Position numbers and translations under genes: made by a program. From an uncultured archaeon (lineage in GTDB: Archaea; Thermoplasmatota; Thermoplasmata; Thermoplasmatales; Thermoplasmataceae), in NCBI GenBank assembly GCA_000965745.1, contig CP009479.1, positions 1,664,001 through 1,728,000 of the forward strand: DNA of 64,000 bases, in the 5' to 3' direction. Under the pieces are notes generated by a model, which did no database searches, was not told the DNA's origin, and saw only the letters and a list, made by a program, of their open reading frames with translations. This document shows, one piece after another, positions 23,730 to 64,000 of this stretch. The first letter of the stretch is position 1, and each line of letters opens with the position of its first letter.

Positions 23730-24818
23730 ATGACAGGCAGTTTGAATTATTACAAGGTGAAAATGCCCCTGGTCGACCCATTTACCACAAGCTTCGGCAC
23801 TGAAACAGAAAAAGAGGCGTACATATTCGAGTTAAAGAAAGACGGCATTTCAGCGTTCTCAGAATCGGTTACCTCAATTGGCCCCTTCTACAGCTACGAG
23901 GACAACACAACAGCTTTCCACATCATAAAGTCATACCTGGCAGAATTGGTCCTCGATGCCCCACAACCCGCCGAGTTTATCGCGCGCTCCAGCAAGGTTA
24001 AGGGCCACAACATGGCAAAGGCAGCGCTCGAAATGCTGCTCTGGGATTACCATTCCAGGAAAAGTGGCAAACCACTTCACGAATACATTGGGAAATCAAA
24101 GGGTTATGCTGACGTTGGCATCTCCTTGGGAATCGACAGGAAGGAAGCGACACTGAAAAAAATACAGGCGGCATTGGACAGAGGCTACAAAAGAATAAAA
24201 GTCAAGATCTCAAAAGGGAAGGAAATGGACATTCTGACACCCATACGGGAAGTTTACCCTGATATAGCACTTAGTGTCGATGCAAACACAGATTACCGCC
24301 TCAGGGACCTTGAGATTCTGAAAAAACTGGACAGATTCAACCTCGTTTACATTGAGCAGCCGCTTGAACATGATGACATTCTTGATCATGCCAGGTTGAG
24401 AAAAGAAATCTCCACGCCCATATGCCTGGATGAGTCCATAACATCTGCAGAACGTGCGGAACAGGCTTTGGAGGTGGAGGCTTGCGAAGTGATAAACATC
24501 AAGCCTGGAAGGGTGGGCGGTTTCACTGAATCTTTGAAAATAGCAGAACTGGCAAGAGAACGGAAGGCTCATGTCTGGGTCGGAGGAATGCTTGAAACTG
24601 GTATCGGTAGGTCATATAACGTTGCCCTGGCAAGCCTTGAAGCTGTAGATTACCCGGGGGACACGTCTCCCAACGACAAGTATTTCGAAAGGGATTTAGT
24701 CAGGAACCCGTTCTCAATGGAAAATGGAACCATAAGGCCGAACAGCGGAACCGGGATCGGTGTTGATATTGACTTCGAGATGATCAACAAGGTCAAGATT
24801 GAGGCTGGAACTTTCTGA
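23730..24818 (+). CDS. menC: o-Succinylbenzoate synthase / N-acylamino acid racemase (enolase superfamily)
   Basis: PFTTSFG, KIKVK-like RIKVKI, DAN, EQP, LDES, NIKPGRVGG, WVGGMLETGIGR, PGDTS: the NSAR/OSBS subfamily pattern. Confidence 0.85.
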   Translation: MTGSLNYYKVKMPLVDPFTTSFGTETEKEAYIFELKKDGISAFSESVTSIGPFYSYEDNTTAFHIIKSYLAELVLDAPQPAEFIARSSKVKGHNMAKAALEMLLWDYHSRKSGKPLHEYIGKSKGYADVGISLGIDRKEATLKKIQAALDRGYKRIKVKISKGKEMDILTPIREVYPDIALSVDANTDYRLRDLEILKKLDRFNLVYIEQPLEHDDILDHARLRKEISTPICLDESITSAERAEQALEVEACEVINIKPGRVGGFTESLKIAELARERKAHVWVGGMLETGIGRSYNVALASLEAVDYPGDTSPNDKYFERDLVRNPFSMENGTIRPNSGTGIGVDIDFEMINKVKIEAGTF

Positions 24819-41191: not shown

Positions 41192-41665
41192 ATGCAGAGT
41201 GATCAACCCACAGTTGAATCCGGAGATTTTCTCGACCAGCTGAGCTGGGGATTCGTCAGGAGAAACATAGTCAGGGGGTTCAAATTTGCTGTTGCCGGAG
41301 GAACCGGTTTTCTTATAGCAGAGGGCCTGATTTTCATGGGTCTGGTGCTTGTGGGGGATAATTACCTTCTCCAGATCAACGCTGTAGCCGCAATACTGAG
41401 CATAGCCGGGGGGTTCTTTATCAACGAGCACTGGACATCACGCAACGAGGGTGACCATGGCGGCAGTGTCGGCGGCTTGCTTTTCAGGCTGTTCAAATTT
41501 GAACTTGTTTACGGCCTCGGCAACATCATATCAATCGCTGTGCAGCTGTTTCTGTTCTATTACTTCTCAGTTTATCCGCTCATTGGGAACATCGCCGGAG
41601 CAGTTGCCGCGCTTCCAGCCAATTATTTCGTCAGCATGGTTGTTGTCTGGAGAATAAAGCTCTAG
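41192..41665 (+). CDS. GtrA family membrane protein
   Basis: KFAVAGGTG, FFINEHWT, NYFVS..VVW; four TMs. Confidence 0.8.
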   Translation: MQSDQPTVESGDFLDQLSWGFVRRNIVRGFKFAVAGGTGFLIAEGLIFMGLVLVGDNYLLQINAVAAILSIAGGFFINEHWTSRNEGDHGGSVGGLLFRLFKFELVYGLGNIISIAVQLFLFYYFSVYPLIGNIAGAVAALPANYFVSMVVVWRIKL

Positions 41666-44472: not shown

Positions 44473-44665
44473 GCTGATTCTGCCATGCCTACTACGTATT
44501 AAGAGATTATCAGGGCCCATGGAAATGGGGAATGCAACCACTTATCGGCCTAGAATAAGGGCATACTTCGCGTTGCATTGAAAGATACCAAATGTTATGG
44601 CCATACAACTTCTGCCCTAACCTTTCAGGCGCCATGTTCATGCGTCTGATTCAGCATCAATAAGC

Positions 44666-48259: not shown

Positions 48260-51076
48260 ATGACCATTGGAGACGAAGGCAGCAAAAGGCCTGAACCGGT
48301 GGTTGGAGGCCAGAGGCCGAGCGGACCTAACAGGACAATGACGGCAATAGTCGCAATTTTGGTTGTCATCATTGTTGTTATGTCTGTTCTGTATCTCACA
48401 AAACCAACATCAAGCACAGCCCCTTCAGTAAATCAGTCTGTATCCGGCGATTTATCCGCCACAGTGGGGACACCTTTTCATTACACTGTAAATGTGGGGA
48501 CCTCCTTCAAAACGGTGCAGGTATTCTTTGGAGATGGTAGCTCAGTAACAGTCCCGTACAGCGGGAGCAACTACGTAAATGTCACGCACACTTATATGCA
48601 GCCGGGGCAAGGCATTGTGTCCTACCAGGTTACATATAACAACGGAGCAACTGCAGTTGCTGCAGGAAACCTTTACCCCATCAAGGTACTGGCTTCTGCG
48701 ACTACTGTATCGAATCAGCAGTCTCTCGGTGTTGTGAACTATAACTACGGTGCATCCAGCCCGAGCATAGCTTCCGGACAGCCTGTATTCAAAGTGGGAT
48801 CATTTGTGAACTTCACCGTTGGATACTTTGGAGAGCCGGCCAACTCCAGCTACCAGATTGTAATGCAGAATATTTCTGTCAGCTATGGAAGTGGAAAGGA
48901 GTATTCCATGCCGTATAACTGGAATGACAGCCAGCAGATGTATCTGGCGGGAACTCATCCCGATCTGAACTTCACGTTCAACAATTCAGGTGTTTACAGC
49001 GTGAACGTAATAACATACACTGCTGAGGTCAACGGCACAACCGGCAAGATCCTTTCACCGCTATCCGCTACCAGCTACTTCTACAACGTTGCCATATTTG
49101 ACAACGGAGCCATCAGCGGAGTATCTACAAGCGGAGTTTTCACAAGGGTTGCAACTACACCATACGACTCTCTGGATCCAGCAATCGGATATGGAGTGAA
49201 TGACTATCAGATCACGCTAGCAACATACCAGACACTTGTTACTTGGAACGGATCCCATTCTACCCAGTTCAAGCCGGAACTGGCTTCGCAGCTTCCCAGC
49301 ACATCCAACGGCGAAATCAACACCAACTACGCCAACTATACCCGCACTTACATGAACGGTGCCGGCGTACAGGTGACCTACAACGTGAACATCACCCCGG
49401 GTGAAAACTACACTTTCCAGATAAGGAACAATGCAACCTGGCAGGATGGAACTCCTGTTACGGCATGGGACGTGATGTACTCATTCACGAGGACGCTGCT
49501 GTTCGACCAGGGCTCTCCGGGAACACCGGGCTGGATTCTGGCACAGTATCTGCTGCCCGGCGGTAAGCTATCCGCCAACACGTTCTACAACATCACGCAG
49601 AACATGACTGTAGACAACTCATCCAACTCGATAACACTGCACTTCCAGGTTCCTATGAGCACTGACCTTGCTTTCAACCTGGTAGCCGCAATTGGATCTC
49701 AGATTACAAGCGCTTCATGGCTTGAAGCCCATGGAGCCGGAATAACATGGAATGCAAGTGGTTTCCAGGCATACCAGAGCCATGGGCTTGTTGCAAACTA
49801 CCTGACCTATCCGCAGAATCATGTGATGTCAGATGGACCGTTTGAGATAGCATACATCGTACCATCCTCGGAAGTTGTGTTGGTGCCTAATCCGCACTAT
49901 GTTGCTCCGGGACCCTGGATGCCCAAGGCGACCGTTTCAAAGGTTATACTGATGTACACATCGCAGATATCATCCATGCAGCTCATGATGCAGTCTGGCC
50001 AGGCTAACAGCGCTGCCATACCGTCGGCAAACTGGCAGGGAGTCCAGAGCCTTCAGGCGCAGGGAAAAGCTAACGTCTATAACTTCACCATGCTTGGTAT
50101 CTACTACTTTTCATACAACATGAACATAAACATTACAGGCATGCACAAATTCGCCAGCCAGGCAAACGTTCCGCAGTACCTCTTCACAAATCTGACGGCG
50201 AGGAGGGCTTTCTCGTATTCCTTTGACTATTCCTATTACATCAGCCACCAGGTTGGGAATGCCATATATGGAATAGATTTCGCAAGTGAGTACGCGGGAA
50301 TGCTGCCAAAGGGCATGCTTGGATATCAGTCCATCGCTGACCTGAATGCGAGCACCGGAGGACAGGTTCCGTACTTCAACCTGCAGGTTGCAAAACAGAA
50401 CTGGAATAACCTCGTTAATGGTACGTTCAACAAGAACAGCCCGGACCCAATTACATGGTCCCCATCTCAGAATGAGTTCCTGTACAATGGCCATCCGCTG
50501 AGCATACCAATTGCAATATTTGCAGGAATTCCACAGGAAGTTGCTGGAGCAAGCACTTGGGAGTCCTACCTGCAGCAGGTCATTCCTGGAATAACTCTGC
50601 CGCAGCTGGTGCTTTCAGCGAACATTGTGATATCTGCGACAGCCCCGAACGGTGGAACGCCATGGCCAATATGGTCTGCAACCTGGTATCCGGACTATCC
50701 GTACCCGAGCGACTACCTTGGCCCGATGGCTGAACCTACAAACAATACGTTCATACCGGGGCCAAACAGCTTCACGCCATACACACTGACGCAGACTGGC
50801 CACATAAACCAGGCAGCAAATGCAACAGCGATGGTGAACTGGTACGAGGCAGGATACTATGAGGCAAACACGACACAGGCACTTGTGTATTTCCACAAGA
50901 TGAATGCAATGCTCGTTAACATGACCGCAATGCTGTTCCTTGAGCAGCTCAACGGATTCTGGGTCATGAGCCCCAACGTTAACGGGACATATGTGAACCT
51001 GTACCAGTCGAACCTCATGTATTCGAGTGGTGGAGACTTATTACTTAACTGGATAAGGATGAATACAACATCCTAA
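48260..51076 (+). CDS. Large family-5 ABC solute-binding protein with N-terminal PKD-like domains
   Basis: N-terminal TM, FFGDGS PKD-like motif, SLDPA, IRNNATWQDGTPVTAWDVMYSF, GPF, WYPDYPYPSDY. Confidence 0.85.
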   Translation: MTIGDEGSKRPEPVVGGQRPSGPNRTMTAIVAILVVIIVVMSVLYLTKPTSSTAPSVNQSVSGDLSATVGTPFHYTVNVGTSFKTVQVFFGDGSSVTVPYSGSNYVNVTHTYMQPGQGIVSYQVTYNNGATAVAAGNLYPIKVLASATTVSNQQSLGVVNYNYGASSPSIASGQPVFKVGSFVNFTVGYFGEPANSSYQIVMQNISVSYGSGKEYSMPYNWNDSQQMYLAGTHPDLNFTFNNSGVYSVNVITYTAEVNGTTGKILSPLSATSYFYNVAIFDNGAISGVSTSGVFTRVATTPYDSLDPAIGYGVNDYQITLATYQTLVTWNGSHSTQFKPELASQLPSTSNGEINTNYANYTRTYMNGAGVQVTYNVNITPGENYTFQIRNNATWQDGTPVTAWDVMYSFTRTLLFDQGSPGTPGWILAQYLLPGGKLSANTFYNITQNMTVDNSSNSITLHFQVPMSTDLAFNLVAAIGSQITSASWLEAHGAGITWNASGFQAYQSHGLVANYLTYPQNHVMSDGPFEIAYIVPSSEVVLVPNPHYVAPGPWMPKATVSKVILMYTSQISSMQLMMQSGQANSAAIPSANWQGVQSLQAQGKANVYNFTMLGIYYFSYNMNINITGMHKFASQANVPQYLFTNLTARRAFSYSFDYSYYISHQVGNAIYGIDFASEYAGMLPKGMLGYQSIADLNASTGGQVPYFNLQVAKQNWNNLVNGTFNKNSPDPITWSPSQNEFLYNGHPLSIPIAIFAGIPQEVAGASTWESYLQQVIPGITLPQLVLSANIVISATAPNGGTPWPIWSATWYPDYPYPSDYLGPMAEPTNNTFIPGPNSFTPYTLTQTGHINQAANATAMVNWYEAGYYEANTTQALVYFHKMNAMLVNMTAMLFLEQLNGFWVMSPNVNGTYVNLYQSNLMYSSGGDLLLNWIRMNTTS

Positions 51077-51162: not shown

Positions 51163-52296
51163 ATGCCGGCCCACGCAAAGGAATTCTTTGAGGCTAACCT
51201 GGATGAAATTATATCTGATATTCGTGAGCTAGTCACCTGTGAATCTCCTTCCAACGATCCTGAAGCACTACTGAAATGCTCAAGGCTTATCGAGTCAATA
51301 GTTGAAAAAAGGCTTTCAACAAAGGCAGAAAAGGTGGAAGTCAAGGGGAAGAGCCCGATCCTGGTCTTCAGATTTCCGGGAAATACAAATTCCATGCCTG
51401 CACTGCTTCTCACACATTATGACACGGTGCATTCCATGGGCGTAATCAACGAATTTCCATTCTCATACAAATCGGGAATACTTCAGGGGCCTGGTGTATT
51501 CGACATGAAGACAGGGCTGGTGCAAGGGATATGGGCCTTGAAGTACCTGTGGGATAACGGCCTCATAACCAGGCCGGTCATACTCATGAGCACTCCGGAC
51601 GAGGAAACCGGGAGCAAAGGTTCAAGAAAAACCATCGAAGAAATTGCTGGTCAATGCGAATATGCTGTGGTGCTGGAGGCAAGCGCTGAAGGCATGATTA
51701 AAACCGGTAGAAAAGGCACTGGCCGTTTTACTGTAAAGGTGGTCGGAAAAGCCGCTCACGCTGGCCTTGAGCCGGAAAAGGGAATCAACTCCATTGAAGA
51801 GATGTCGCATATTGTCCTGGAGCTTCAGAAGCTGAATGATAACAAAGAGGGGACAACGGTAAACGTCGGAACAATTCATGGTGGGACGACCTCCAACGTT
51901 GTTCCCGCGGAAGCGGAGATTACTGTAGATATAAGGGTTTGGTCACTGGAAGAGGCTCAACGCATAACTTCCGTATTCAACAGCCTCAAGCCAGCAAACA
52001 AGAATGCCCGGATATCAGTGACCGGGGAGTTCGATCGCCCTCCGATGATCTCAAGCGAGAAAACAAGGAAACTGGTCGACGTGATCAAGGAGATCTCTTT
52101 CGAAATGGGCAAGAAGCTAGAAGACACCTCTGTAGGCGGGGCAAGTGACGGGAACCTGGTTGCACCACTGGGAGTTCCCGTTATAGATGGGTTTGGAGCA
52201 GTTGGTGGAGGTGCACATTCAAGGTCCGAGTGGGTGGATGTAAGTGAAATACCTTTCAGGGCAGCACTGCTGGCAAGAGTGGTAACACAGATCTAA
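51163..52296 (+). CDS. M20 metallopeptidase (carboxypeptidase G2-like)
   Basis: ESPS, HYDTV, GPGVFDMKTG, DEETGS, AAHAG, GGASDGN, GAHS. Confidence 0.92.
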   Translation: MPAHAKEFFEANLDEIISDIRELVTCESPSNDPEALLKCSRLIESIVEKRLSTKAEKVEVKGKSPILVFRFPGNTNSMPALLLTHYDTVHSMGVINEFPFSYKSGILQGPGVFDMKTGLVQGIWALKYLWDNGLITRPVILMSTPDEETGSKGSRKTIEEIAGQCEYAVVLEASAEGMIKTGRKGTGRFTVKVVGKAAHAGLEPEKGINSIEEMSHIVLELQKLNDNKEGTTVNVGTIHGGTTSNVVPAEAEITVDIRVWSLEEAQRITSVFNSLKPANKNARISVTGEFDRPPMISSEKTRKLVDVIKEISFEMGKKLEDTSVGGASDGNLVAPLGVPVIDGFGAVGGGAHSRSEWVDVSEIPFRAALLARVVTQI

Positions 52297-52480
52297 GCGG
52301 TACGGTCTCGCTCTCTGGTTTCAACCTATATTGGTGGAAATAGATCGGTGTTAGTAAACATCTCAACATTATGTTCATTCCGATATTCGTTAATCATATG
52401 ACGAATTCCTCTCTAAAGCCTTTGCAATGGCGTATATCCCCACACATAGATTTAAGTATGACAATTTTTATGAAGGCGCT

Positions 52481-54274
52481 ATGGCAAAATTGCACCATAA
52501 ATTTCTGATAGTTTGGGTAGCAGCGGCTTTTCTTGCAGTAAACTTTATTGCAGTAGCTCATGCGGCCACCCAGCCTGCACCCAGTGGAGAGCTGGTCATA
52601 GGAACAGCTCTTGACACAACATTAAGTGATCTTAATCCACTGACAACAGGGAACAGTCTAGCCAGCGATCTCGTGAAACAGATGTACGCTGATAATCTGA
52701 TGTACATGTGGCCGGATGGAAACCTTACACCATGGCTGGCAAACAGTTACACAGTTACTGAACACAGCAATGGATCTGAATCAATACAGTACAACTTGAA
52801 TCCCAACGCTGATTGGGTAAGTGGTTCAAACGTGACAGGGCCGTTAACATCGAAGGATGTCAAATTCACCTTTGACCTGTTAATGGCAAACAACACGCTT
52901 GACAGCACTGGTGTGACTTCAAATCTAACCTCAGTTGTTGCACCCAACAACACAACAGTTGTGTTCAATTTCAACGCTTCCAGCCCGCTTTGGCTCACAT
53001 ACACATCGCAGCAGGTCATACTCCCATCTTCATGGGCATCCTATGATAATGGAAATCTCGCCTCCCTCGGAGGATTCACCAACCTGAAGGCAAAGATAGG
53101 ACAGGAAATAACAGCAGGTCCTTTCTACCTTAGTAAGTCAACACAGCAGGGAGCAACCCTGACGGCAAACACTCACTTCTGGATGGGTTCACCCAAAATC
53201 GCCAAGGTTTACTTCGAGCAGTTCAAATCGACAGCGGCTTCAACAGAGGCACTGAAAACCGGTGCAATAGCAGCTGAATTCCCGTCGCTGAGCGATTACA
53301 ACTCTCTGTCACTAACAGCAAACATAACAAATGTAGTGTTTCCCGAGCCCTGGATATTCAACCTTTGGATGAATGACCAGGTAAGTCCGTTCAACAACAC
53401 ACACCTTAGGCAAGGATTCGCATACGCAATCAACAAACAGCAGATCATAAAGAAGGCAGAAGACGGCCAGGGGGCTGCCGGACCAAGCAACACATCATAC
53501 GGTGGACTTCCAACAGTGCTTAAGCAGGACTGGGCATCTGGCCTGACATACTACGCCTATAATGTCACCAAGGCAAAACAGGAAATCACAATGGCTGGAT
53601 ACAATCTGAGCAACTCAGGATATTTCACCAACAATACAACCGGTGCTACCCTGAACGTAACAATAGTTGACCCGCCAATCGCAGACTGGGAGGCCGCGGC
53701 GACATTCATCGTAGCAGACCTTCAGGCTGTGGGCGTGAAAGCATCTCTGCAGATAACCCCGATAAGCACATGGGCCTCGGATGTCTTTAACATAAGCAAC
53801 TTCCAGAGCGGAATAATGACATATTTCGGATATGTTCCTTCCTACACCAATGCTTACTATGACCTTGCTGACCTTTACTCGTATGACGGAGGAAGCAACT
53901 TCAATGTCGAGAACTTCAACAGTTCTACTCTGAACAGCTATTTCCAGAATGCATCCAGGACGACAAACACATCAGTGATAAGCTCAAATCTATCTAATGC
54001 ACAGCATCTGATCGACAGTCAGGTCCCAGTAATACAGATAGGAAACGCCTACAACTACTATGCCTACAACAACAAGCAGGTACAGGGATTCGTTTCTAAC
54101 CTGACAATCAACGACCCGTACAACCTGATGCAGGTATATGCCGTAAAGGGAGCGACTGGACCAGGTCTCTCTGGCACAACACTGTATGAAATAATCGGTG
54201 GCGTCGTAGCTGCAATTGTCATCATAGGTGGAGTTGCATACGGGGTTAGGAAAAGAGGCAAGAAGGAAGACTGA
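52481..54274 (+). CDS. Opp/Dpp-type ABC solute-binding protein
   Basis: Signal peptide, LNPL, PWLA, DVKFTF, AGPF, LRQGFAYAIN, C-terminal TM; ATG 52481 lies shortly after TTTAAGTA (52451). Confidence 0.9.
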   Translation: MAKLHHKFLIVWVAAAFLAVNFIAVAHAATQPAPSGELVIGTALDTTLSDLNPLTTGNSLASDLVKQMYADNLMYMWPDGNLTPWLANSYTVTEHSNGSESIQYNLNPNADWVSGSNVTGPLTSKDVKFTFDLLMANNTLDSTGVTSNLTSVVAPNNTTVVFNFNASSPLWLTYTSQQVILPSSWASYDNGNLASLGGFTNLKAKIGQEITAGPFYLSKSTQQGATLTANTHFWMGSPKIAKVYFEQFKSTAASTEALKTGAIAAEFPSLSDYNSLSLTANITNVVFPEPWIFNLWMNDQVSPFNNTHLRQGFAYAINKQQIIKKAEDGQGAAGPSNTSYGGLPTVLKQDWASGLTYYAYNVTKAKQEITMAGYNLSNSGYFTNNTTGATLNVTIVDPPIADWEAAATFIVADLQAVGVKASLQITPISTWASDVFNISNFQSGIMTYFGYVPSYTNAYYDLADLYSYDGGSNFNVENFNSSTLNSYFQNASRTTNTSVISSNLSNAQHLIDSQVPVIQIGNAYNYYAYNNKQVQGFVSNLTINDPYNLMQVYAVKGATGPGLSGTTLYEIIGGVVAAIVIIGGVAYGVRKRGKKED

Positions 54275-54307
54275 TAATGAACGGATATGATATCGAGCGT
54301 GTAAGAT

Positions 54308-55309
54308 ATGATTACTAAAAGATATCTGATAACCCGTTCAATCTATGCTATTGCAACGACCTTCGTTGCAATAGTAATAAATTTTTTATTACCAAGATTA
54401 ACACCAGGAAACCCGGCGGTTACTGCCCTTGCAACAACATATCATTATTTGCCGCCTGGAAAATTGAAATTGCTTGAATCCCAGTTTGGCCTCACTAACG
54501 CACCGTTGTATGTACAGTTTGAAACTTATTTCTGGAACCTTCTGCATGGCAATCTGGGATTTTCTTTCCATTATTACCCTGAGACCGTGACGCAGGTTAT
54601 AGCACAGCATCTTCCATGGACTCTTTTCCTTCTGGGAACCGCCACCCTTATCTCATCATTCCTCGGTGTTGTCATCGGCAGGATCACTGGCTGGATGAGC
54701 GGCACTAAGGGAGAGACAACCCTTTCTTCCATATTTATCGCCCTCACCTCACTTCCCTACTTCTGGTTTGCAATCATCCTGCAGCTGGTTCTCGCTGTGG
54801 ACCTCGTCATAAACGGGTTCAGGTTTTTCCCCATCAATGGTTCTTACTCAGTATTTGTTACCCCGGGTGTAAACCTTCCCTTCATCATTAGTGCATTAAG
54901 GCACAGCCTTTTGCCGCTGATCTCAATTGTGGTCACGGCTTTCCCCGGGTTCGCCCTCACAATGCGTAATACCATGGTGAATCTCAATAAAGAGGATTAT
55001 ATAACGATGGCAAAGGCCAAGGGGTTAAGGGAGTCGCATATTGTAAAGAAATACGCGGCACGAAATGCGGTCCTTCCGGTTTCAACACACATTGTCCTGG
55101 CCTTCGGATATATAGTGGCAGGCGCTTTCTTTGTGGAGATTGTTTTCGGTTACCAGGGGATTGGCTACGTGCTCTATGAAGCCGTAACATCACAGGATTT
55201 CCCACTGACGGATGGAATTTTCCTCGTTATAACTCTAACAGTCATAATCGCGAATTTTGCGGCAGACCTGCTCTATGCATACCTTGATCCAAGGGTACAG
55301 TTAAGGTGA
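54308..55309 (+). CDS. oppB: Opp/Dpp ABC permease B
   Basis: PGNP, GNLGFS, EDYITMAKAKGL, ADLLYAYLDPRV. Confidence 0.92.
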   Translation: MITKRYLITRSIYAIATTFVAIVINFLLPRLTPGNPAVTALATTYHYLPPGKLKLLESQFGLTNAPLYVQFETYFWNLLHGNLGFSFHYYPETVTQVIAQHLPWTLFLLGTATLISSFLGVVIGRITGWMSGTKGETTLSSIFIALTSLPYFWFAIILQLVLAVDLVINGFRFFPINGSYSVFVTPGVNLPFIISALRHSLLPLISIVVTAFPGFALTMRNTMVNLNKEDYITMAKAKGLRESHIVKKYAARNAVLPVSTHIVLAFGYIVAGAFFVEIVFGYQGIGYVLYEAVTSQDFPLTDGIFLVITLTVIIANFAADLLYAYLDPRVQLR

Positions 55310-55315
55310 GGCAAA

Positions 55316-56209
55316 GTGATAGGAAATTATCAAAATGAAACAGAAATAAAGAAGAAAGGCGGGCTTGTGGGTTCTGAAAACCTACTTGTGTCCCTTTTCA
55401 GGAATAAGAAGAGCAGAGCAGGACTCATAGTGTTTGTAATCTTTGCCTTTATTGGAATAGTTGGCCCTTTCCTTGCTCCCTACAGTGCATCATACACAGG
55501 AGGAGCTAATTTCCAGCCGCCTACGAATGCACACCTGCTTGGCACCGATTATATCGGCCACGATGTACTGTCATGGTTCCTTGTGGGGACCGGCGTATCG
55601 CTTTACGTAGGGTTGACGGTAGCCCTGATATCCGTTGCAATAGGGTCGATCGTGGGTCTGGCTTCAGGATATTATGGAGGCATCGTGGACAGCGCATTGA
55701 TGAGAGTAGTAGACATTCTACTCATTCTACCTGGATTCCCGCTTCTTGTCATCCTGTCGGCATATCTTCCCCCAACAAACACTACCACGATCCTCATTCT
55801 GGCAATATTAAGCTGGCCCTTCATGTCAAGGGTGATCAGGTCTCAGGTACTGACTCTAAAGGAACGCCCCTTCATCAAGGCGGCTGTTCTTTCAGGCATG
55901 TCCGGCTCAAAGATCATCTTCAAGGAGATATTCAAGCATGTGATGCCACTGATCGCGATCAACACCGTCTACCTCATGGTTGCAGCAATCGTGGCTCAGG
56001 CAGGATTGGCATTCTTTGGACTTGGAGACCTCAATTCAGTTAATTGGGGCACGTCATTATACTGGGCCCAGACCGAAGATGCTGTGATCTACAATGCCTG
56101 GTGGTGGATTGTTCCCCCCGGAATCTCCATTGCAGTGCTTGGTATAGCAGCTAATCTTTTCGGGTCAGGGCTCACGGAAGTGTCAGGTGAAAAGGCAGGT
56201 GAAATCTGA
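55316..56209 (+). CDS. oppC: Opp/Dpp ABC permease C
   Basis: HLLGTDYIGHD, MRVVD, RSQVLTLKE, WWWIVPPG. Confidence 0.92.
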   Translation: MIGNYQNETEIKKKGGLVGSENLLVSLFRNKKSRAGLIVFVIFAFIGIVGPFLAPYSASYTGGANFQPPTNAHLLGTDYIGHDVLSWFLVGTGVSLYVGLTVALISVAIGSIVGLASGYYGGIVDSALMRVVDILLILPGFPLLVILSAYLPPTNTTTILILAILSWPFMSRVIRSQVLTLKERPFIKAAVLSGMSGSKIIFKEIFKHVMPLIAINTVYLMVAAIVAQAGLAFFGLGDLNSVNWGTSLYWAQTEDAVIYNAWWWIVPPGISIAVLGIAANLFGSGLTEVSGEKAGEI

Positions 56210-57180
56210 TGAATGACTTATTGTCCATAAGAGGTCTAGAAACAGTGTTTGACACCAAGAGGGGAACAGTCAAGGCCCTGCGTTCGCTGGATCTTGATAT
56301 CCACAAGGGGGAAACTCTGGCCCTGGTCGGGGAATCCGGCTCTGGAAAATCCACTCTCGGGCTCTCGATAATGAGGCTTATAGAAAGTCCGGGCAGGATT
56401 GCAGAAGGAAGTATAATACTACACGCTACTGAAGATGTGGATGTCACTTCCCTTAAGGGTGGCAAACTGAGGAGATTCAGGTGGAAGAAGGTTGCAATGG
56501 TATTCCAGTCCGCCATGAATGTCCTTAATCCGGTAATGAGAATAGAAGACCAGTTCATAGACGCATTAGAGGCACATGATATTGACAAGTCAGAAATCTC
56601 CGGAAGGATAGACCATTATCTGAAGCTTGCGGGCCTTGGGCCCAAGGTAAGGAGGCTTTACCCGCATGAACTGAGTGGCGGGATGAGACAGAGAGTGAAT
56701 ATCGCCCTTGCACTCAGCTGCGAACCGGATCTACTTATTGCGGATGAACCTACTACCGCACTGGATGTTGTGGTCCAGAAGGAGATACTGAAATCCCTGA
56801 ACACATTGAAGAAACAGCTCGGGCTTACCATAATTTTCATTACCCATGATATATCGGTGGCCGCTTCCGTGGCAGACAGGATGGCCATTTTCTATGCAGG
56901 CAGGATTGTGGAGATAGGGCCTAAGGAAGAGGTCATAAACAGGCCGAGGCATCCGTACTCCAAGGCACTTCTTTCATCCATAATCACCCTGAATACAAAG
57001 CGGGGTCAGGATCTCATTTCGCTAAAGGGGAATCCGCCTGATCTGATCACGCCCATTGAAGGCTGCAGTTTCCACAACAGATGCCCTTCTGCCCGACCAG
57101 AATGCCTGAAATACAAACCGGTTGAGAGTTTAGTATCGTCCGACCACTACGTAGAGTGTCTATACCCGATTGGTGAATAG
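56209..57180 (+). CDS. oppD: Opp/Dpp ABC ATPase D
   Basis: GESGSGKS, YPHELSGGMRQR, ADEPTTALD, HPY, C-terminal Cys cluster. Confidence 0.95.
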   Translation: MNDLLSIRGLETVFDTKRGTVKALRSLDLDIHKGETLALVGESGSGKSTLGLSIMRLIESPGRIAEGSIILHATEDVDVTSLKGGKLRRFRWKKVAMVFQSAMNVLNPVMRIEDQFIDALEAHDIDKSEISGRIDHYLKLAGLGPKVRRLYPHELSGGMRQRVNIALALSCEPDLLIADEPTTALDVVVQKEILKSLNTLKKQLGLTIIFITHDISVAASVADRMAIFYAGRIVEIGPKEEVINRPRHPYSKALLSSIITLNTKRGQDLISLKGNPPDLITPIEGCSFHNRCPSARPECLKYKPVESLVSSDHYVECLYPIGE

Positions 57181-57192
57181 GATTGATGTTTC

Positions 57193-58203
57193 ATGTTTGC
57201 TAAATCAGAAAGGAAAGTTGAAGAGAACGTTTCAAGCAGCTCGGTCTCAGGCACTGATGTCATGAGATTCGAGAATGTGACAAAGATTTACAAAAGCGGC
57301 CCCATCGTGAATTATGCACTTGACGACGTGAGCTTCAGCCTTAGAAAGGGGGAGACCATCTCCATAGTCGGGGAAAGTGGCAGCGGCAAAACAACCTTGG
57401 GAATGGCAGCGATAAATTTATTGAACTATGACAGGGGAACAATCTATTTTGAAAACATGCCGGTAAAAAAACTCAACAGGAAACAGAGAAAGAAATTCAG
57501 GGCTGGTTCACAGATGATTTTCCAGGATCCATATGGATCTCTTAACCCATACAATTCGGTATATGACTCTGTAGTAGCTCCTCTAAACAGTTTCAGGCCA
57601 GATTTGTCTCGTTCACAGAAAAGGGAGGAGGTCCTCAAAATGCTTGACAAAGTAGGGCTAAGGCCTGCGGAGTCATACATTGACGAATTTCCGAAGAAAC
57701 TGTCAGGTGGCCAGAGGCAGAGAGTCTCGATAGCCCGTGCATTGATCATGCGCCCTGAGCTCATCATCGCCGATGAACCAACTTCTATGCTCGACGTGTC
57801 TGTCAGTTCAACCGTTATGACACTGCTGAATCATCTTAAAGAGGAGATGAATTTCTCCATGCTGTACATCTCCCACGAGCTAGCAACAGCACGTTACATT
57901 TCCGAAAGAATGGCGGTTATGAACCTTGGAAGGATAGTAGAAATCGGAGGGTCAGACAGCATCGTGGATCACCCTTTGCACCCGTACACGAAGCTACTGC
58001 TCACCTCGATGCCCGATGTCAATAACAGCAACTCGGAGGAAATGGACGTGACACTGGATTTCGACATCTACAATGGAGGGATAAAGGGCTGCAGTTTCGC
58101 TACCATGTGCCCCTTTGTCAGGGAGAACTGCAAAGAATCAAGGCCCGAATTGAACAAAGTGGAAGAAGACCACTACGTCGCCTGTTTCTACCCGTTGACA
58201 TAA
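57193..58203 (+). CDS. oppF: Opp/Dpp ABC ATPase F
   Basis: GESGSGKT, QDPYGSLNP, LSGGQRQR, ADEPTSMLD, HPY. Confidence 0.95.
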   Translation: MFAKSERKVEENVSSSSVSGTDVMRFENVTKIYKSGPIVNYALDDVSFSLRKGETISIVGESGSGKTTLGMAAINLLNYDRGTIYFENMPVKKLNRKQRKKFRAGSQMIFQDPYGSLNPYNSVYDSVVAPLNSFRPDLSRSQKREEVLKMLDKVGLRPAESYIDEFPKKLSGGQRQRVSIARALIMRPELIIADEPTSMLDVSVSSTVMTLLNHLKEEMNFSMLYISHELATARYISERMAVMNLGRIVEIGGSDSIVDHPLHPYTKLLLTSMPDVNNSNSEEMDVTLDFDIYNGGIKGCSFATMCPFVRENCKESRPELNKVEEDHYVACFYPLT

Positions 58204-58267
58204 CGAAGGCCTTAGTAATGCATTCAAGGTACAATTCCAGCATTTTTCCTGGAGCAGGAGGGTAAGG

Positions 58268-58822
58268 ATGCAGTCAGATACGGCCGTTGTTATATTGGGA
58301 ATGAGGGTTGGATTGGGCGGCCCCGGGGAAGAACTTGCAGGAAGGATCAGGGTTGCCATGTCAGTCGCATCAAGGATCGACCCAGAATACATAGTACTGA
58401 CCGGAGGGGTTACAAGCCATGAGACCTCAAGCTCCGAAGCCGAAGAGATGTTCACACACATCATAGAGAATTACCCTGAGAGTGACAACACATTTATCCT
58501 GGAGGATGAGGCTCTCGATACTCTTGGGAATGGCATTTTCACACGTGAGAAGCTGAAGGAATACCCTGAGATAACTAAATTACACATTGTCACCAGTTGC
58601 TACCATCTTCACAGAAGCCAATTTATCTTTGCCAGGAGTTTTTCGAACGAATACCTGACCATTGTCGAAGAATGCTTCGACTGCGACTCCAATAACGCAA
58701 CAATGGAGCAGCAAAAGCTGGCCGAAGCCCATGAATTTTTCAGGAGGGCGGAGGAGTCAGGGACCTGCTATATGGATGCACTGCTGGAAACTGAGATATA
58801 CCTTGGAAAGAAGGTATATTGA
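58268..58822 (+). CDS. YdcF/SanA/ElyC (DUF218) family protein
   Basis: VVILG, VLTGG, SEAEEM, LEDEALDTLGN, VTSCYHLHR. Confidence 0.85.
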   Translation: MQSDTAVVILGMRVGLGGPGEELAGRIRVAMSVASRIDPEYIVLTGGVTSHETSSSEAEEMFTHIIENYPESDNTFILEDEALDTLGNGIFTREKLKEYPEITKLHIVTSCYHLHRSQFIFARSFSNEYLTIVEECFDCDSNNATMEQQKLAEAHEFFRRAEESGTCYMDALLETEIYLGKKVY

Positions 58823-58839
58823 ATTTCAGGACAGTTCCT

Positions 58840-60075
58840 CTACGGCCTCCTTTTCTTCATGTAATAATAAGAGGAACCTCCTGCCACTGCAGCAACAGGG
58901 ACGGCCATGACTGCGATGGATGTGGGCTGTCCAAGGCCAAGGATGTTTAATCCCTGACTGCCGACATATATTGTCATGTTGTAATATGCAGTTCCATTGC
59001 TTCCCGCTGCCTTGAGCTCAATGTTGTTATTTCCGTCACTGACTGCAACATCAGTGATCTGGGAAGATGAGACTTCTTTGCCATTCAGGTACCAGGTGTA
59101 TGAATAATTCCCGAATCCCACACCATCGGGGTATGAGGATATAAGCTTAATATCTGCAGCCTTTGAAACTGAAACATGAGTCTTATTCAGAACTTCAGAA
59201 CCAGCAAGGCCCGTAATGTGGACAGTTTTCTGTGAAGAGATCGTCGGCATATGAATGTAGATAGCGGAAACGTTCTTTCCGTGCAGTGTGAGCATACCGA
59301 AGAAGCTGATGTTCTGGTCTGTGCCTGGATAATATGTCCAAATAGCAGCAGGATCGGTCTGCACGACCTGTCCGTTGCCAATGTAGAGCATTGCATGGCC
59401 ATTTCCGACGCCTCCATCAGCTATTACATCACCGGGGGAGATTATGTATTGCGGAAGAATGCTGTCATTTGTCACATAGAAAACCGAAGCGTGGGGGGAA
59501 CCCGTGTAATTGCCGGATGTACCGTTAAAGCCGGGAATGGGCTGGTACATCATTATCTTCTCCTGTGTTGCATTATTTGGAAATACCGGGAGGTCGTATC
59601 CTGCAAGATAGTCTGCAAGCCTGTAGACACCAACTATTCCGTAGCTTCCCGGGAAACCGGACTGGTATGTGCTCAGGTTGTCCCCGGGCGGATTGGAAGC
59701 CAGTGCAGTAAGCCCACCTGCAATAAGGGCTTCAGAGACAAAATGCGCACAGTCCTCCGAATTAAAATAATCCATGTTGTTTTGCATTATCGACTGGTTG
59801 ATTCCTGCAGGGTAATTGATGTTGTGAAAATAGCCCTTATGGACCATTTCAGCATAATTTACAGCAGCTGAAGTGTTGTAGTAATATCCCTGATAATAGT
59901 AACTGTTGCTGTTTGACAGTGAATAAGTGGATGCAATCGGTGCAGTTTTATTCCCCTGATAGTGCACAACGGCAAATGAAAAGACCAGCACGAGGCAGAG
60001 CATGGCGGTAATGGAAACTGTTATTGTGACGGGAATCCTGTTTATGGAACCGGTAGAAGCACTCCGGAACTTCAT
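58840..60075 (-). CDS. Membrane-anchored extracellular putative amidase (Amidase_6 / NlpC-P60-CHAP-like Cys-His hydrolase)
   Basis: N-terminal signal/TM; YNTSAAVNYA; DCAHFVSEALIAGG (catalytic Cys); PGDVI...GHAMLY (His); Ig/PKD-like domain; C-terminal TM and KKRRP; start ATG 60075. Confidence 0.7.
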   Translation of the reverse strand: MKFRSASTGSINRIPVTITVSITAMLCLVLVFSFAVVHYQGNKTAPIASTYSLSNSNSYYYQGYYYNTSAAVNYAEMVHKGYFHNINYPAGINQSIMQNNMDYFNSEDCAHFVSEALIAGGLTALASNPPGDNLSTYQSGFPGSYGIVGVYRLADYLAGYDLPVFPNNATQEKIMMYQPIPGFNGTSGNYTGSPHASVFYVTNDSILPQYIISPGDVIADGGVGNGHAMLYIGNGQVVQTDPAAIWTYYPGTDQNISFFGMLTLHGKNVSAIYIHMPTISSQKTVHITGLAGSEVLNKTHVSVSKAADIKLISSYPDGVGFGNYSYTWYLNGKEVSSSQITDVAVSDGNNNIELKAAGSNGTAYYNMTIYVGSQGLNILGLGQPTSIAVMAVPVAAVAGGSSYYYMKKRRP

Positions 60076-60270
60076 AGCGCATTGATCACTGTAAATATAT
60101 TTAGAACTTGCCACCGCGATGGGTTCACAATAAAATAATGGCTTGGATGAGACGAGCACAGGAAAGACCGAACTTAATGTGGAATGTTATCTTATGTGGC
60201 GAACACCTGCCTCTTGATACCAGCGGAAGTTCAAGGCAAGTAATATATAATAACTTATTTTAAGCCAACA

Positions 60271-61671
60271 ATGAGGGCGGGGCAGTTCATTCAGTGCGGC
60301 ATCAGGGGTTTTGAAAGAGAAGAAAGTCTAAGGCACATTTCGAGACTTCTGCCTGCATCCATTTCACTATTCAGGGGAGATTACAGGGATGAGGAAGACC
60401 TTCAGGCCCTCATCAGGCAGATAAACAGAATCTACAAAGTGGACAATGCCACTCCCGAGCCGTATATTGCAATCGACCAGGAAGGGGGAAACGTCGTAAG
60501 GCTACCCTGGCTAAACTACAGCCCCGGAAATTACCTCCTGGGAAGATTGGACAACACCAACCTTACAAAATTCGCTGGCATGCTGGCCGGTTATGACCTT
60601 TATTCCAGGGGGATCAGGTGGAATCTTGCCCCTGTTCTCGACGTACTTAACTCATACAACCCAGTGCTTCTGGAAAGAAGCTTCGGGGAGGACATCGACC
60701 TCATTGCAAGGCACGGTGAAGCTTATATCAGGGGACTCCAAAGCTATGGTGTGGGTGGGACGGCAAAACATTTCCCGGGGCATGGTGGAGTTCTCGAGGA
60801 CTCCCATTTAGAACTCCCCAAGGACAGGAGACCTCTCAGCAGCATAATGAATGATGCTTACCCGTTCAGGAAGGCCATAGAGGCAGGAGTGAAATCAGTG
60901 ATGATGTCTCATGTTCTTTATGAATCATTAGACCCTGATTTTCCCGCTTCCCTTTCCCCTAAAATATATGATCTGGCCAGGAATGAGTTCGGCTTTAGAG
61001 GATTGATTGTTACGGATTCGGTTGATATGCTGGCAATAAAGGATAATTTTTCACCCCAGGAGATCGTAAAATATTCGCTTGGAAATGGTGCAGACCTGCT
61101 TGAATGTGCTGACCTCGGCACTTCACTTGAGCTGTCCGGGCATGTTCTCAGTGTAGACAGCGAGAAGCTGAAAAGGAAAGTTGAACATATAGCAGGTTTC
61201 CCCCCAAAACCGACACTTAGTTTCAAGCCGCCGGAGGTAATAATGACCTCACTATCAGTATTGTCGAATGAATTTATCAGGGGCGTGCCACTGGACCCAT
61301 CCGAACCTGTAAAGATCTTCTTCCTTGACACGAATCCTGACAGCAACGTAGCAGAGCCTTTCTCTTCCTTTGAATTCATAATGAAACAGCTTGGGGATTT
61401 GCACATGGATATTGACATTGGAAACTCAAAGGATTTTGAGGGCTTCAACGGAAAGGAGCAGCAGATGATACTCGTGGGCAGGAATGAGCACATGAAGGAT
61501 AGAATCCAGGATATCAGGGAAAAAACTGCAGAAAACAGCGCTGTATACATTTCAACTAGTATCTCCAAGGATACCGGAACTGTACCGGATACAATTGGGT
61601 ACATCGCCGCTTTTTCCACAAAGGGATATAGCATCTTAGGGGCTATTTACAAGGCTATGGGCCTGATGTGA
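60271..61671 (+). CDS. nagZ: GH3 beta-N-acetylglucosaminidase
   Basis: IDQEGGNVVR, NLAPVLDV, RSFG, NagZ-diagnostic KHFPGHGxxxxDSH, VMMSH, nucleophile TDSVDM. Confidence 0.9.
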   Translation: MRAGQFIQCGIRGFEREESLRHISRLLPASISLFRGDYRDEEDLQALIRQINRIYKVDNATPEPYIAIDQEGGNVVRLPWLNYSPGNYLLGRLDNTNLTKFAGMLAGYDLYSRGIRWNLAPVLDVLNSYNPVLLERSFGEDIDLIARHGEAYIRGLQSYGVGGTAKHFPGHGGVLEDSHLELPKDRRPLSSIMNDAYPFRKAIEAGVKSVMMSHVLYESLDPDFPASLSPKIYDLARNEFGFRGLIVTDSVDMLAIKDNFSPQEIVKYSLGNGADLLECADLGTSLELSGHVLSVDSEKLKRKVEHIAGFPPKPTLSFKPPEVIMTSLSVLSNEFIRGVPLDPSEPVKIFFLDTNPDSNVAEPFSSFEFIMKQLGDLHMDIDIGNSKDFEGFNGKEQQMILVGRNEHMKDRIQDIREKTAENSAVYISTSISKDTGTVPDTIGYIAAFSTKGYSILGAIYKAMGLM

Positions 61672-61683
61672 AGTCCGGAGCGA

Positions 61684-62775
61684 TCAATAAATTAGATGAT
61701 TTGACCTGATCTCGAGAAATTCATTGAGATCATCGGCCCATCCTTCCACAAGTTCCGCGAACGGGGCATCTCTCCCCCTTGCCTCCAGAAGGCGGTTCGA
61801 GCCGTACAGGAGGCGGATCCAGTCCTCTCTCAGTTCACATTTTTCCGATTCAAGAAGGTCGTACAGTATTCCTGCCCATACTGAAAGGGGATCATAATCC
61901 CGCCTGTCTGTTATGTGGATGTAATATCCCTGGACCCTTCTCCCCTTTAATGGGCCAAGCAGGGGCGTGAATTCGGTCTCTCTCATCATTATTCCCGGGA
62001 ACTCGGTTTTTATCAACGACCACAGTCCGGGAAAACCAACAATGGAGAACGGATGGGGAGTACCACGGCCCAGGCTGGCATTAATACTTTCAAGTAGGCA
62101 CATTCCCGAATAATTGATAACTGAATCCACAGTCGGAAGGTTCCATGAAATCGGAATGTACGAGGGAACAAGTTCATCATAGTACGCCTTTCGTTTATAC
62201 CCGGTCATCCTGATTATTGTGGGTTCGGCCCCAATATTCCGGTCAAACAGGTGAGCCAGCTCACCGATGGTCATGCCGTATCTCACGGGAATTGTGTCGA
62301 TGCCGACGAAAGACCCGTACTTAGGCTCTAACATGGGCCCACTGACGGTGTTGGAATTCAATGGATTCGGCCTGTCAAGAAGCATAAAGCTTGTTGACTT
62401 CTTCTTTGCTGCTTCCATCACTCTGTAAAGCGTGGAGAGGTATGTATAAAAGCGGACTCCTGCGTCCTGCACATCAAAAATCAGTGTATCAATATCGTCG
62501 AGCTCAGAAACGTCCATTTCCTTTGAATCCTCCTTGTAAAGCGATCTCACCGGTATTCCATGGTAATCTTCATCGGGAACGTTCTCGCCATTTGCAAAAG
62601 TGCTGTAGAATCCATGTTCAGGAGAAAATATCTTGACAATATTGGCCCCATTTCTTCGAAGGTAGTCAACGTTCTGGACAAGGCCAAGGGTGACACCTGT
62701 TATGTTTGTGACCATGCCAATCCTGCCACTGTCCCTTGCCGGATGAAAATTCTCCAGGCCGAATCTGAAACTCAT
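61684..62775 (-). CDS. namZ: Exo-beta-N-acetylmuramidase (DUF1343 / GH171)
   Basis: GMVTNITG, FSPEHG, FDVQDAGVRFYTY, LDRPNP, RYGMTIGELA, GRGTPHPF. Confidence 0.9.
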   Translation of the reverse strand: MSFRFGLENFHPARDSGRIGMVTNITGVTLGLVQNVDYLRRNGANIVKIFSPEHGFYSTFANGENVPDEDYHGIPVRSLYKEDSKEMDVSELDDIDTLIFDVQDAGVRFYTYLSTLYRVMEAAKKKSTSFMLLDRPNPLNSNTVSGPMLEPKYGSFVGIDTIPVRYGMTIGELAHLFDRNIGAEPTIIRMTGYKRKAYYDELVPSYIPISWNLPTVDSVINYSGMCLLESINASLGRGTPHPFSIVGFPGLWSLIKTEFPGIMMRETEFTPLLGPLKGRRVQGYYIHITDRRDYDPLSVWAGILYDLLESEKCELREDWIRLLYGSNRLLEARGRDAPFAELVEGWADDLNEFLEIRSNHLIY

Positions 62776-62922
62776 TGGGCACTCACAGAGCGTAAATGGA
62801 TATTAAGTCAGTCCTGCGTGGTTCTTATCAGTACGGTCTGAATAACCTCTCTTTTTGCACCAGTAATACTAGACATTGTTTATTTAGGCTGAACAATTGA
62901 TCCAATCAGGGGTGCCTGCTCT

Positions 62923-64000
62923 ACGAACACATCTGTAAAATTCGGTTCGCTTGTTTCAGAGGGAAAAAAACGGGGAAAAGGTTTTCTCAACATTAAAGAC
63001 GGAATTATAGTGTCCATCACTTCTTCCCCCAGGGAAGGCTTCGAAATTGAGGACTATTCAGAAAATACCGTAGTCCCGGGGCTCATAGACATTCATACCC
63101 ATGGTTACAGGGGTACCGATTCAATGGGCTCGGATTTGAATTCCATATTGAAGTGGGCATCAGACATAACTTCTCACGGAGTGACTGGTATACTTCCTAC
63201 TTCTGTATCTGCCAGCCACAGGAATGTTGTTCACTTTCTTGATCGGATAAGTGATGTAATCGAGGAATCCAACCATAATCACGGGGCCGAAATACTGGGG
63301 TCCAGGCTTGAAGGCCCATACATAAACAGAATCAAGGCTGGTGCCCACAGGAGGGAATATATACGAACTCCAAGCGAATTCGAGATCAATGATATTTCCA
63401 GCTTTCATTCAGCCAACCTGAAGATAGTTGACCTCGCACCTGAGATTTCAGGCGCAACGGAAGCAATGAAGAAACTGGTCAGGAAGGGAATTATTATTTC
63501 AGCCGGCCACACAAACGCCAATTTCGAACAGGCAAAATCATTCTTTTCAAGCGGAGTAAGGCTGCTGACCCACTTCTACAACGCAATGTCCGGCTTTCAT
63601 CACAGGGACGTTGGGATGGTAGGCGCCGGCCTTCTGCTTCCGAACTTCAGCCTCGAACTGATTTCTGATTTCAAACACACCGCCCCGGAGGCGATAGACA
63701 TCGCCGTAAAAAACAAAACCTGGAGAAACATAATACTCATTACAGATTCTATGTCCGCCACCGACCTGGGTGACGGGAATTACAAACTTGGAGACCTTGA
63801 AGCGGAGGTGGTGGATGCAACCTGCTACATCAAGGGTACGAGGACACTTGCGGGAAGCACACTCACACTGGACAAGGGAATAAAGAACCTGTTTGAGCAT
63901 GGTTACGACCTGAGTGAAGTAATCGGATCAGCCACGAAGAATCCCGCAGAGCTTCTGGGCCTGAATGACAGGGGAGTCCTTGAACCCGGTTATCGGGGTG
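62923..64000 (+). CDS. nagA: N-acetylglucosamine-6-phosphate deacetylase (3'-truncated by the window; absent from the ORF track)
   Basis: PGLIDIHTHG, LEGPYIN..KAGAH, LAPE, GHTNA, THFYNAM, ITDSM, LAGSTLTLD, NPAELLG; likely start ACG 62923 after AGGGGTG (first canonical start is GTG 63010). Confidence 0.92.

Follow-up and report, generated by a model that had tools for sequence, protein, structure and literature searches.

The recovery of sugars and peptides from bacterial cell walls is known from several bacterial systems, among them the MurK plus MurQ route of Clostridium acetobutylicum and Tannerella forsythia, the AnmK-MurQ-NagA-NagB route of Escherichia coli, and the ATP-binding cassette (ABC) importers of muropeptides MppA-Opp and YepA-YejBEF. 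In Bacillus subtilis, NagZ, AmiE and NamZ digest intact peptidoglycan sequentially (PMC8054146), and Fidelibacter multiformis IA91 uses exogenous muropeptides as a carbon and energy source via N-acetylmuramic acid 6-phosphate (MurNAc-6P), N-acetylglucosamine 6-phosphate (GlcNAc-6P) and D-lactate (PMC11652737). For archaea, the survey of Strock et al. 2025 has secreted killing enzymes as its theme, does not mention MurQ, NagZ, MurNAc or catabolism, and leaves open the choice between food and the scavenging of environmental peptidoglycan (PMC12352652). Here we analyse 64,000 nucleotides (the window, positions 1,664,001-1,728,000 of contig CP009479.1) from an uncultured archaeon of the Thermoplasmataceae, together with the adjoining sequence to its right, and describe a block of 19 genes that is very probably an island for the catabolism of peptidoglycan fragments, by which some Thermoplasmatales would feed on pieces of bacterial wall, and which appears to be old, vertically inherited and patchily lost. 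No description of MurQ/NamZ/AnmK clusters or of this pathway in archaea was found in the literature searched, which covered few subscription papers.

The island spans ~52.3-72.95 kb in window-equivalent numbering (~21 kb), continuing for ~10 kb past the window end at 64000; genes there are given as positions of locus L001, to which 60000 is added for the window equivalent. Enzymes of wall-only chemistry (NamZ, MurQ, AnmK, DacB, a YkfC-like peptidase and LysA) lie together in this one block. The sugar arm comprises the following genes.

60271-61671, plus strand: NagZ, predicted GH3 exo-beta-N-acetylglucosaminidase without signal peptide (PF00933, 2e-55)
61684-62775, minus strand: NamZ, predicted GH171 exo-beta-N-acetylmuramidase without signal peptide (PF07075, NamZ_N 7e-65, and PF20732, NamZ_C)
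62896-64000, plus strand, ending 83 bases past the window: NagA, GlcNAc-6P deacetylase (TIGR00221 above cut-off)
L001 4096-5118, minus strand: BadF/MurK-like kinase (best PDB match 8zo3; assignment below curated cut-off)
L001 5179-6267, minus strand: beta-lactamase-fold serine hydrolase, AmiE candidate (AmiE assignment below curated cut-off)
L001 6297-7280, minus strand: double-SIS glucosamine-6-phosphate deaminase candidate (below curated cut-off)
L001 7343-8455, minus strand: AnmK (NF007148, 386.8 against a cut-off of 387)
L001 8545-9366, plus strand: MurQ (NF003915 above cut-off; Glu79/Glu110)

An earlier note on the window, made from its letters alone, had proposed a system for scavenging bacterial peptidoglycan and recommended a look past 64 kb; MurQ, AnmK, the MurK-like kinase and the SIS deaminase, a candidate for the NagB role, lie directly beyond. 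The open reading frames that it named are all intact and where it placed them, and its worry that the genome might hold no route for MurNAc is countered by the MurQ, AnmK and MurK-like kinase genes of the cluster. Pfam domains above cut-off in the window are M20, SBP_bac_5, DUF218, GH3, NamZ_N plus NamZ_C, and Amidohydro_1, so that the suggested profile checks succeeded for GH3, DUF1343/GH171 and PF02698 and failed for PF12671, which scored below cut-off.

Judged by sequence motifs, catalytic residues are retained in every catabolic enzyme examined. The expected Asp-His dyad motif of NagZ is found at residues 166-179, and the nucleophile Asp249 is present; Glu53 and Arg237 of NamZ lie in motifs matching, and presumably correspond to, the proposed active-site Glu92/Arg279 of B. 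subtilis NamZ; and for residues of MurQ, AnmK and LysA we assume their usual catalytic roles. The best solved relative of the BadF kinase is the MurNAc/GlcNAc kinase 8zo3, and the protein belongs to that family, with a putative specificity for MurNAc. Homology of nagA begins at ~62930 and its first canonical start is at 63010, leaving ~25 N-terminal homologous residues with no in-frame ATG, GTG or TTG; the homology thus sets in ~27 codons ahead of the first GTG, from 62893 to 63010 the only in-frame starts are ATT/ATC or other near-cognate codons, and no indel was found here in three other runs covering the site. By hydropathy no catabolic enzyme begins with a hydrophobic segment, which bears out the earlier view that NagZ and NamZ are without signal peptides. 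Permeases aside, N-terminal hydrophobic segments occur only in the solute-binding protein (SBP) and the Cys-His protein described below, and the digestive enzymes are therefore predicted to be cytoplasmic.

The stem-peptide arm lies in the right part of the island.

L001 9427-10533, plus strand: DacB, family S13 (SxxK, SxN and KTG motifs)
L001 10530-11261, minus strand: Ntn hydrolase
L001 11370-12191, plus strand: DppA, family M55
L001 12204-12920, minus strand: SH3 plus NlpC/P60 protein, YkfC-like (best PDB match 3h41)
L001 13002-14279, plus strand: LysA (TIGR01048 above cut-off), at the right edge and kept without the island in a congener (G002)

LysA has both the PLP lysine and the CE specificity motif, and is inside the cluster in 8 of 16 related loci. 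Profile searches of the source genome found no DapB, DapF or LysX; because DapB and DapF are lacking, no source of meso-diaminopimelate (meso-DAP) for LysA can be recognised within the cell, and the enzyme is predicted to need diaminopimelate from outside. One relative that carries a wall cluster (G032), which we take to be Cuniculiplasma divulgatum S5, encodes DapB, and the lysine argument therefore fails for it.

The host is an archaeon of the Thermoplasmataceae without bacterial-type wall synthesis. Its genome (G000) is a single contig of 2,226,687 bases (GC 46.42%), 99.4% complete with 1.1% contamination, and holds one 16S gene, matched by archaeal primers. Profile searches of this genome gave for MurA a match far under cut-off and AroA-like, for the Mur ligases a sole match that is FolC-like, and for peptidoglycan transglycosylase none. 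Given an uncultured organism and genes of bacterial type, one might suspect an assembly error that placed bacterial DNA in an archaeal genome, or else a transfer that is recent and non-functional. The assembly figures just given speak against this, as do an island GC of 0.46-0.51 against 0.464 genome-wide, near-identical contigs from two other studies covering the stretch, the presence of both island junctions in the congener G003, and MurQ relatives of which the nearest named ones are archaeal (plasmid-borne bacterial MurQ being at most 45% identical) and one is carried by cultured Picrophilus. Together with a 100/100 branch in the MurQ tree, these observations lead us to rule out chimerism or artefact, the likelihood of which we put as negligible, and the earlier concern about a bacterial or chimeric contig falls with it. 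At the left edge of the island (window 52322) contig depth drops from ~120-150 to ~65-80 in runs X4 and X5, with no clear step in X8; strains with and without the island may co-exist, contig depth being a weak measure of this.

To its left the island is bounded by one further gene.

51163-52296, plus strand: M20 peptidase (PF01546/PF07687), left flank, not specific to the island

This peptidase occurs in 48 of 103 genomes of the family, many of them without MurQ. In the congener G002 (96% complete), sequence that matches the window at 80% extends to the end of the M20 gene, which is kept while the island is absent; M20 is there followed directly by lysA and then by a large SBP gene. M20 was thus rejected as an island gene. 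A more distant congener by the identities of flank proteins, G003, has both the M20-SBP junction and the dppA-nlpC-lysA junction, and loss in G002 is therefore the simpler reading. The contiguous run described in the earlier note is accordingly real in that its genes are present and adjacent, but it runs on mixed strands and excludes M20. The minus strand carries the Cys-His gene (58840-60075), from which nagZ diverges, and namZ (61684-62775), with which nagZ converges; the island consequently comprises more than one operon. A sigma-70 promoter scan of the region, which looks for the wrong promoter type for this host, gave matches at chance level.

MurQ is found above cut-off in 25 of the 103 genomes and in 8 of 20 genera. 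A partial tabulation of related loci (n=16) spans three families, in which the gene set is kept and its order shuffled; conservation across Thermoplasmatales, for which the earlier note had wanted a synteny check, is thereby confirmed. NagA, the beta-lactamase-fold serine hydrolase, MurQ and NlpC/P60 are present in all 16 loci, and NagZ and NamZ in 14. DUF218 co-occurs with MurQ in 23 of 23 genomes and AnmK in 14 of 14, while 14 of the 16 genomes with the SBP and 13 of the 15 with the surface hydrolase have MurQ, these counts covering kin genomes that are not independent. The relatives' loci hold extra genes, namely an Ala-Glu-epimerase-like gene (14/16), an S66 LD-carboxypeptidase, GNAT acetyltransferases, an S15 hydrolase and a GlcD/F-type dehydrogenase. 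The source genome has the last elsewhere (56% identity), and by analogy it is a plausible sink for MurQ-derived D-lactate (cf. PMC11652737).

In the MurQ tree all 17 Thermoplasmatales rows stand on one side of a 100/100 branch, grouped by genus, and in the NamZ tree they form two groups. These trees (LG+G4 without mixture, unrooted, with four bacterial rows for MurQ and seven for NamZ, taken from plasmid records and from a single genome) point to long residence in Thermoplasmatales, and with those rows no bacterial donor can be named. The search for related loci returned one bacterial locus only. The MurQ of G022 is identical to Picrophilus oshimae AAT42599.1 over the compared residues 6-100.

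Several further loci deserve mention. L066-L070 (G065, G126, G095), from a family that belongs to the same class but not to the order, hold the pathway and a pair of MurQ paralogues, of which one is archaeal-type and the other falls among the bacterial rows, and some members also carry the surface hydrolase and GlcD/F genes. L019-L020 (G032) has two NamZ paralogues of different clades 5 kb apart. Genes for NamZ occur on haloarchaeal megaplasmids of Haladaptatus, Halorussus, Halomontanus, Halosolutus and Natrononativus; in Haladaptatus pallidirubidus (L079 9895-13185) a GH3 gene and namZ adjoin a sugar ABC system, and this NamZ falls outside both Thermoplasmatales clades. Open reading frames of Acidobacteriota and Brevibacillus (L060 8504-11068 and L080) match both the serine hydrolase and NamZ, as apparent AmiE-NamZ fusions.

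The left part of the island encodes the predicted import and surface components, with one soluble protein between them.

52481-54274, plus strand (start inferred; longest open reading frame from 52427): family-5 SBP (PF00496) with N- and C-terminal membrane anchors
54308-58203, plus strand: Opp/Dpp-type ABC importer, with permeases at 54308-55309 and 55316-56209 and ATPases at 56209-57180 and 57193-58203
58268-58822, plus strand: soluble DUF218 (Upr-like) protein, candidate sugar-1-(di)phosphate-bond hydrolase (PF02698; no transmembrane segment)
58840-60075, minus strand: surface-anchored cysteine hydrolase of NlpC/P60-CHAP fold, Amidase_6-like, with a PKD/Ig stalk (fold model, conserved residues)

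The SBP has 20 N-glycosylation sequons and, by hydropathy, an anchor at each end, and is at most 20% identical to any solved SBP among the matches listed. The importer is syntenic with catabolic genes in six other genomes (G004, G023, G024, G046, G055 and G375); synteny and co-occurrence (the SBP being in 16 of the 103 genomes) link the SBP to the pathway, and the system would import muropeptides or amino-sugar oligomers.

The surface protein had been labelled amidase-like, a function that is not established: its match to Amidase_6 (PF12671; E=1.5e-3) reaches 19.1 bits against a gathering score of 23.2, the fold is that of NlpC/P60-CHAP, and fold does not fix bond specificity. A weak Amidase_6 match recurs in 59 of 85 homologues, and language-model neighbours are Amidase_6 at 0.91. 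C109, H227, Q239 and D241 are invariant in 85 sequences (the protein itself and homologues at 50-70% identity), of which all that carry a name are archaeal. The protein was modelled at pLDDT 84, with an N-terminal helix, the catalytic domain, the PKD/Ig stalk and a C-terminal helix. For the catalytic domain the best VIA match is a CHAP endolysin (Z 10.7, rmsd 2.5, 124 aligned), followed by Tae3, CwlO and LytE; Foldseek with the full model matched PKD/Ig domains only, and a search of 1.8 billion representatives with the catalytic domain gave one full-length relative and otherwise short or partial matches. The modelled papain-like fold, the invariant Cys-His pair and a polar third residue place the protein in the NlpC/P60-CHAP superfamily. 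With its N-terminal hydrophobic segment and high sequon density, it is the only enzyme of the island predicted to be exported. We rejected it as an AmiE equivalent; the AmiE-like candidate is the beta-lactamase-fold protein at L001 5179-6267, which is the one present in 16 of 16 related loci. The surface hydrolase occurs in 15 of the 103 genomes.

Proteins with the DUF218 domain in E. coli (UprA/SanA, UprB/ElyC and UprC/YgjQ) hydrolyse the C55-diphosphate-sugar bond and all three cleave lipid II; UprA requires T125, H149, R152 and E182, and archaea are not mentioned in that paper (bioRxiv 10.64898/2026.10.14.759067). T85, H113 and R116 of the island protein align exactly on T125, H149 and R152 of UprA. 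All 21 archaeal copies compared share its E147; in a stretch that aligns poorly, this residue falls two columns away from UprA E182, and the Glu of the UprA cluster is probably conserved as well. The two MurQ genomes without DUF218 are each less than 60% complete. DUF218 proteins of similar size are also found in other archaea. From its residues and setting, the protein probably frees a muropeptide from a sugar-1-(di)phosphate-linked form, and since import of lipid II is unlikely, the candidate substrates are UDP-MurNAc-peptide, diphosphate-capped fragments and GlcNAc-1-P linkage units. This is, as far as we could find, the first catabolic context for an Upr/DUF218 enzyme.

A fold like those of endolysins and type VI secretion system amidase effectors, taken together with the killing of bacteria by other archaeal wall hydrolases (PMC12352652) and the action of Upr enzymes on lipid II, a precursor in growing cells, might suggest contact predation or necrotrophy, in which the anchored hydrolase would weaken living bacteria and the island would digest their contents including wall precursors, hence the Upr-like enzyme. 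The armament, however, is a single tethered hydrolase with no lysozyme or soluble lytic transglycosylase (SLT) found, and many carriers of the island are without it. An outer membrane, moreover, covers and shields Gram-negative walls. We consider predation improbable.

Gene content, protein families, catalytic residues, predicted topology, the lack of wall synthesis and co-distribution are the grounds from which we infer the activities, the transported ligand and the benefit to growth. Outside the cell, the anchored Cys-His hydrolase would cut stem peptides or cross-links of wall debris to importable size, as its fold and topology suggest, or the debris may arrive already cut. The family-5 ABC system would import muropeptides or amino-sugar oligomers. 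Once in the cytoplasm, the fragment would be degraded from its non-reducing end by NagZ, the AmiE-like hydrolase and NamZ, as by the B. subtilis trio, with the Upr-like protein probably releasing linked forms; the MurK-like kinase and AnmK would phosphorylate MurNAc/GlcNAc and anhydro-MurNAc, MurQ would release D-lactate, and NagA and the SIS deaminase would lead on to fructose-6-phosphate. DacB, the YkfC-like peptidase and DppA would break down the stem, and LysA would convert the freed meso-DAP to lysine, no de novo lysine route having been seen in the genome.

Several observations weigh against this reading. The SBP model is equally near AppA, a nonapeptide binder, and chito- and manno-oligosaccharide binders (TM 0.81-0.82). 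Roughly half of the MurQ genomes, those of Picrophilus and Cuniculiplasma among them, yielded no match to this SBP, and the Cys-His hydrolase was not found in 12 of the 25, again including these two, both of which keep the cytoplasmic pathway. The AmiE, deaminase and kinase assignments are all below curated cut-offs. No close Ala-Glu epimerase or S66 homologue was found in the source genome, which leaves gaps in the stem pathway, and LysA and M20 both persist in genomes without the island. Endo-acting glycan hydrolases (SLT, GH25) were likewise not found in the source genome, and the cell may therefore depend on fragments made by others.

The nearness of the SBP model to chito-oligosaccharide binders as much as to AppA also suits a role in using chitin oligomers or recycling GlcNAc from the cell's own N-glycans; the Mur-type genes would then have shifted to other amino sugars, and GlcNAc would also suit NagZ, NagA, the kinase and the deaminase. 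This case is weak because a profile search of the source genome found no GH18 chitinase and because seven wall-related enzymes with intact catalytic residues (NamZ, MurQ, AnmK, DacB, the YkfC-like protein, DppA and LysA) are left unexplained. A chitin-only role was rejected on these grounds, and we regard the whole alternative as very improbable.

Closer to the proposed feeding on wall fragments is a salvage limited to small soluble molecules, with the same chemistry inside the cell and no attack on walls: growing or lysed bacteria would shed free MurNAc, anhydro-MurNAc, disaccharides and short peptides for the island to use. AnmK takes a lytic-transglycosylase product yet the genome is without SLT, the glycosidases are all exo-acting and cytoplasmic, and the surface hydrolase is missing from the dozen MurQ genomes just counted. 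Where present, however, that hydrolase is nearly confined to MurQ genomes and lies within the cluster, and a cytoplasmic DacB would imply the import of cross-linked or pentapeptide fragments and not of monomers. We give such salvage a lower but appreciable probability, and catabolism of wall fragments remains the reading that we favour. The scavenging idea of the earlier note is to this extent upheld, in its archaeal host, MurNAc route, conserved gene set and cytoplasmic catabolic enzymes, and corrected in that M20 is a flank and the AmiE candidate another protein; its clipping of walls at the surface and muropeptide binding by the SBP stand as predictions.

More tentatively, Thermoplasmatales with the island could be specialised wall consumers that grow on peptidoglycan and make lysine from its DAP, equipped with a muropeptide-binding protein of a new class, an anchored hydrolase specific to archaea and a repurposed cytoplasmic Upr-like enzyme. 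That enzyme, on the same tentative footing, may once have served to release lipid carriers and now free muropeptides from phosphate-linked precursors (UDP-MurNAc-peptide, diphosphate-capped strands) or from their links to wall polymers. If specialised consumption is true, much of the Thermoplasmatota share of the catalogued archaeal peptidoglycan hydrolases would be digestive and not offensive. In acidic habitats the necromass of bacteria would then yield carbon, nitrogen and lysine by a cross-domain route. The pathway could also suggest supplements for archaea that are hard to grow. The island occurs in cultured strains, close relatives that lack it cleanly offer natural controls, and the question can therefore be addressed by a growth or isotope experiment; the two uncharacterised surface proteins are new objects of study.

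Around the island we note some other genes. Large orphan family-5 SBPs (~930 residues) lie on either side of it (window 48260-51076 and L001 14327-17122), and there are at least seven such paralogues genome-wide. At window 22908-24818 is a paralogue of the island Ntn hydrolase (32% identity), divergent from a gene of o-succinylbenzoate synthase/N-acylamino-acid-racemase type (TIGR01928 above cut-off). An orthologue of this racemase-type gene adjoins M20 and GNAT genes beside the wall cluster in G032, a grouping that resembles a module for D- to L-amino-acid conversion. Window 41662-44541 encodes, from translation alone, a UvrD-type helicase with a C-terminal PD-(D/E)XK-like nuclease region, AddA/AdnA-like.

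How the island relates to described systems can now be stated. With the B. subtilis murQ-murR-murP-amiE-nagZ-namZ operon (PMC8054146) it shares NagZ, NamZ, MurQ, a beta-lactamase-fold amidase candidate and the exo-lytic sequential logic. It differs in that its hydrolases are without signal peptides, those of the B. subtilis type being secreted; in that an ABC importer and kinases (MurK-like, AnmK) stand in place of the phosphotransferase system (PTS) protein MurP, and neither MurR nor any other regulator or PTS protein is encoded in the island; and in that the stem-peptide arm lies in the same block, in a host with no wall to recycle. The BadF-family kinase, AnmK, MurQ, NagA and the deaminase are common to it and to the MurK plus MurQ and E. 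coli AnmK routes, both entries being united here in a purely catabolic set, in an archaeal host and with membrane-anchored, sequon-rich extracellular parts. As in MppA-Opp and YepA-YejBEF, a family-5 SBP accompanies Opp/Dpp-type BCDF components. The island DUF218 protein is like UprA, UprB and UprC in its domain and aligned Thr-His-Arg; those are membrane-anchored, face outward and act on their own cell's C55-PP-glycan, whereas the island protein is predicted to lie free in the cytoplasm of a host that makes no undecaprenyl-linked wall, and is tied to a catabolic island.

Nearly the same sugar-arm genes occur in two bacterial hosts, in a Thermomicrobium roseum plasmid cluster (murQ-badF/hexosaminidase-anmK-serine hydrolase-nagA-SIS) and, with an ABC system, in a Deinococcus cluster (ABC-namZ-badF-SIS-amidase); their proteins are 32-42% identical to those of the island, and neither can be named as the donor. 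Fidelibacter multiformis IA91, unlike the archaeon, is a bacterium and also builds its own wall from the fragments (PMC11652737). The table of Strock et al. 2025 has at least 26 SH3 plus NlpC/P60 rows from Thermoplasmatales and Sysuiplasmatales, none of these 26 labelled Sec (PMC12352652). One of them, MCL6089490.1, is three accessions away from the island MurQ MCL6089493.1, in agreement with the order nlpC-SIS-nagA-murQ, and by its accession this signal-less Thermoplasmatales protein of the catalogue traces to an island of the present type. With its import and catabolism genes, the island fills in the downstream half that the question raised by that survey had lacked.

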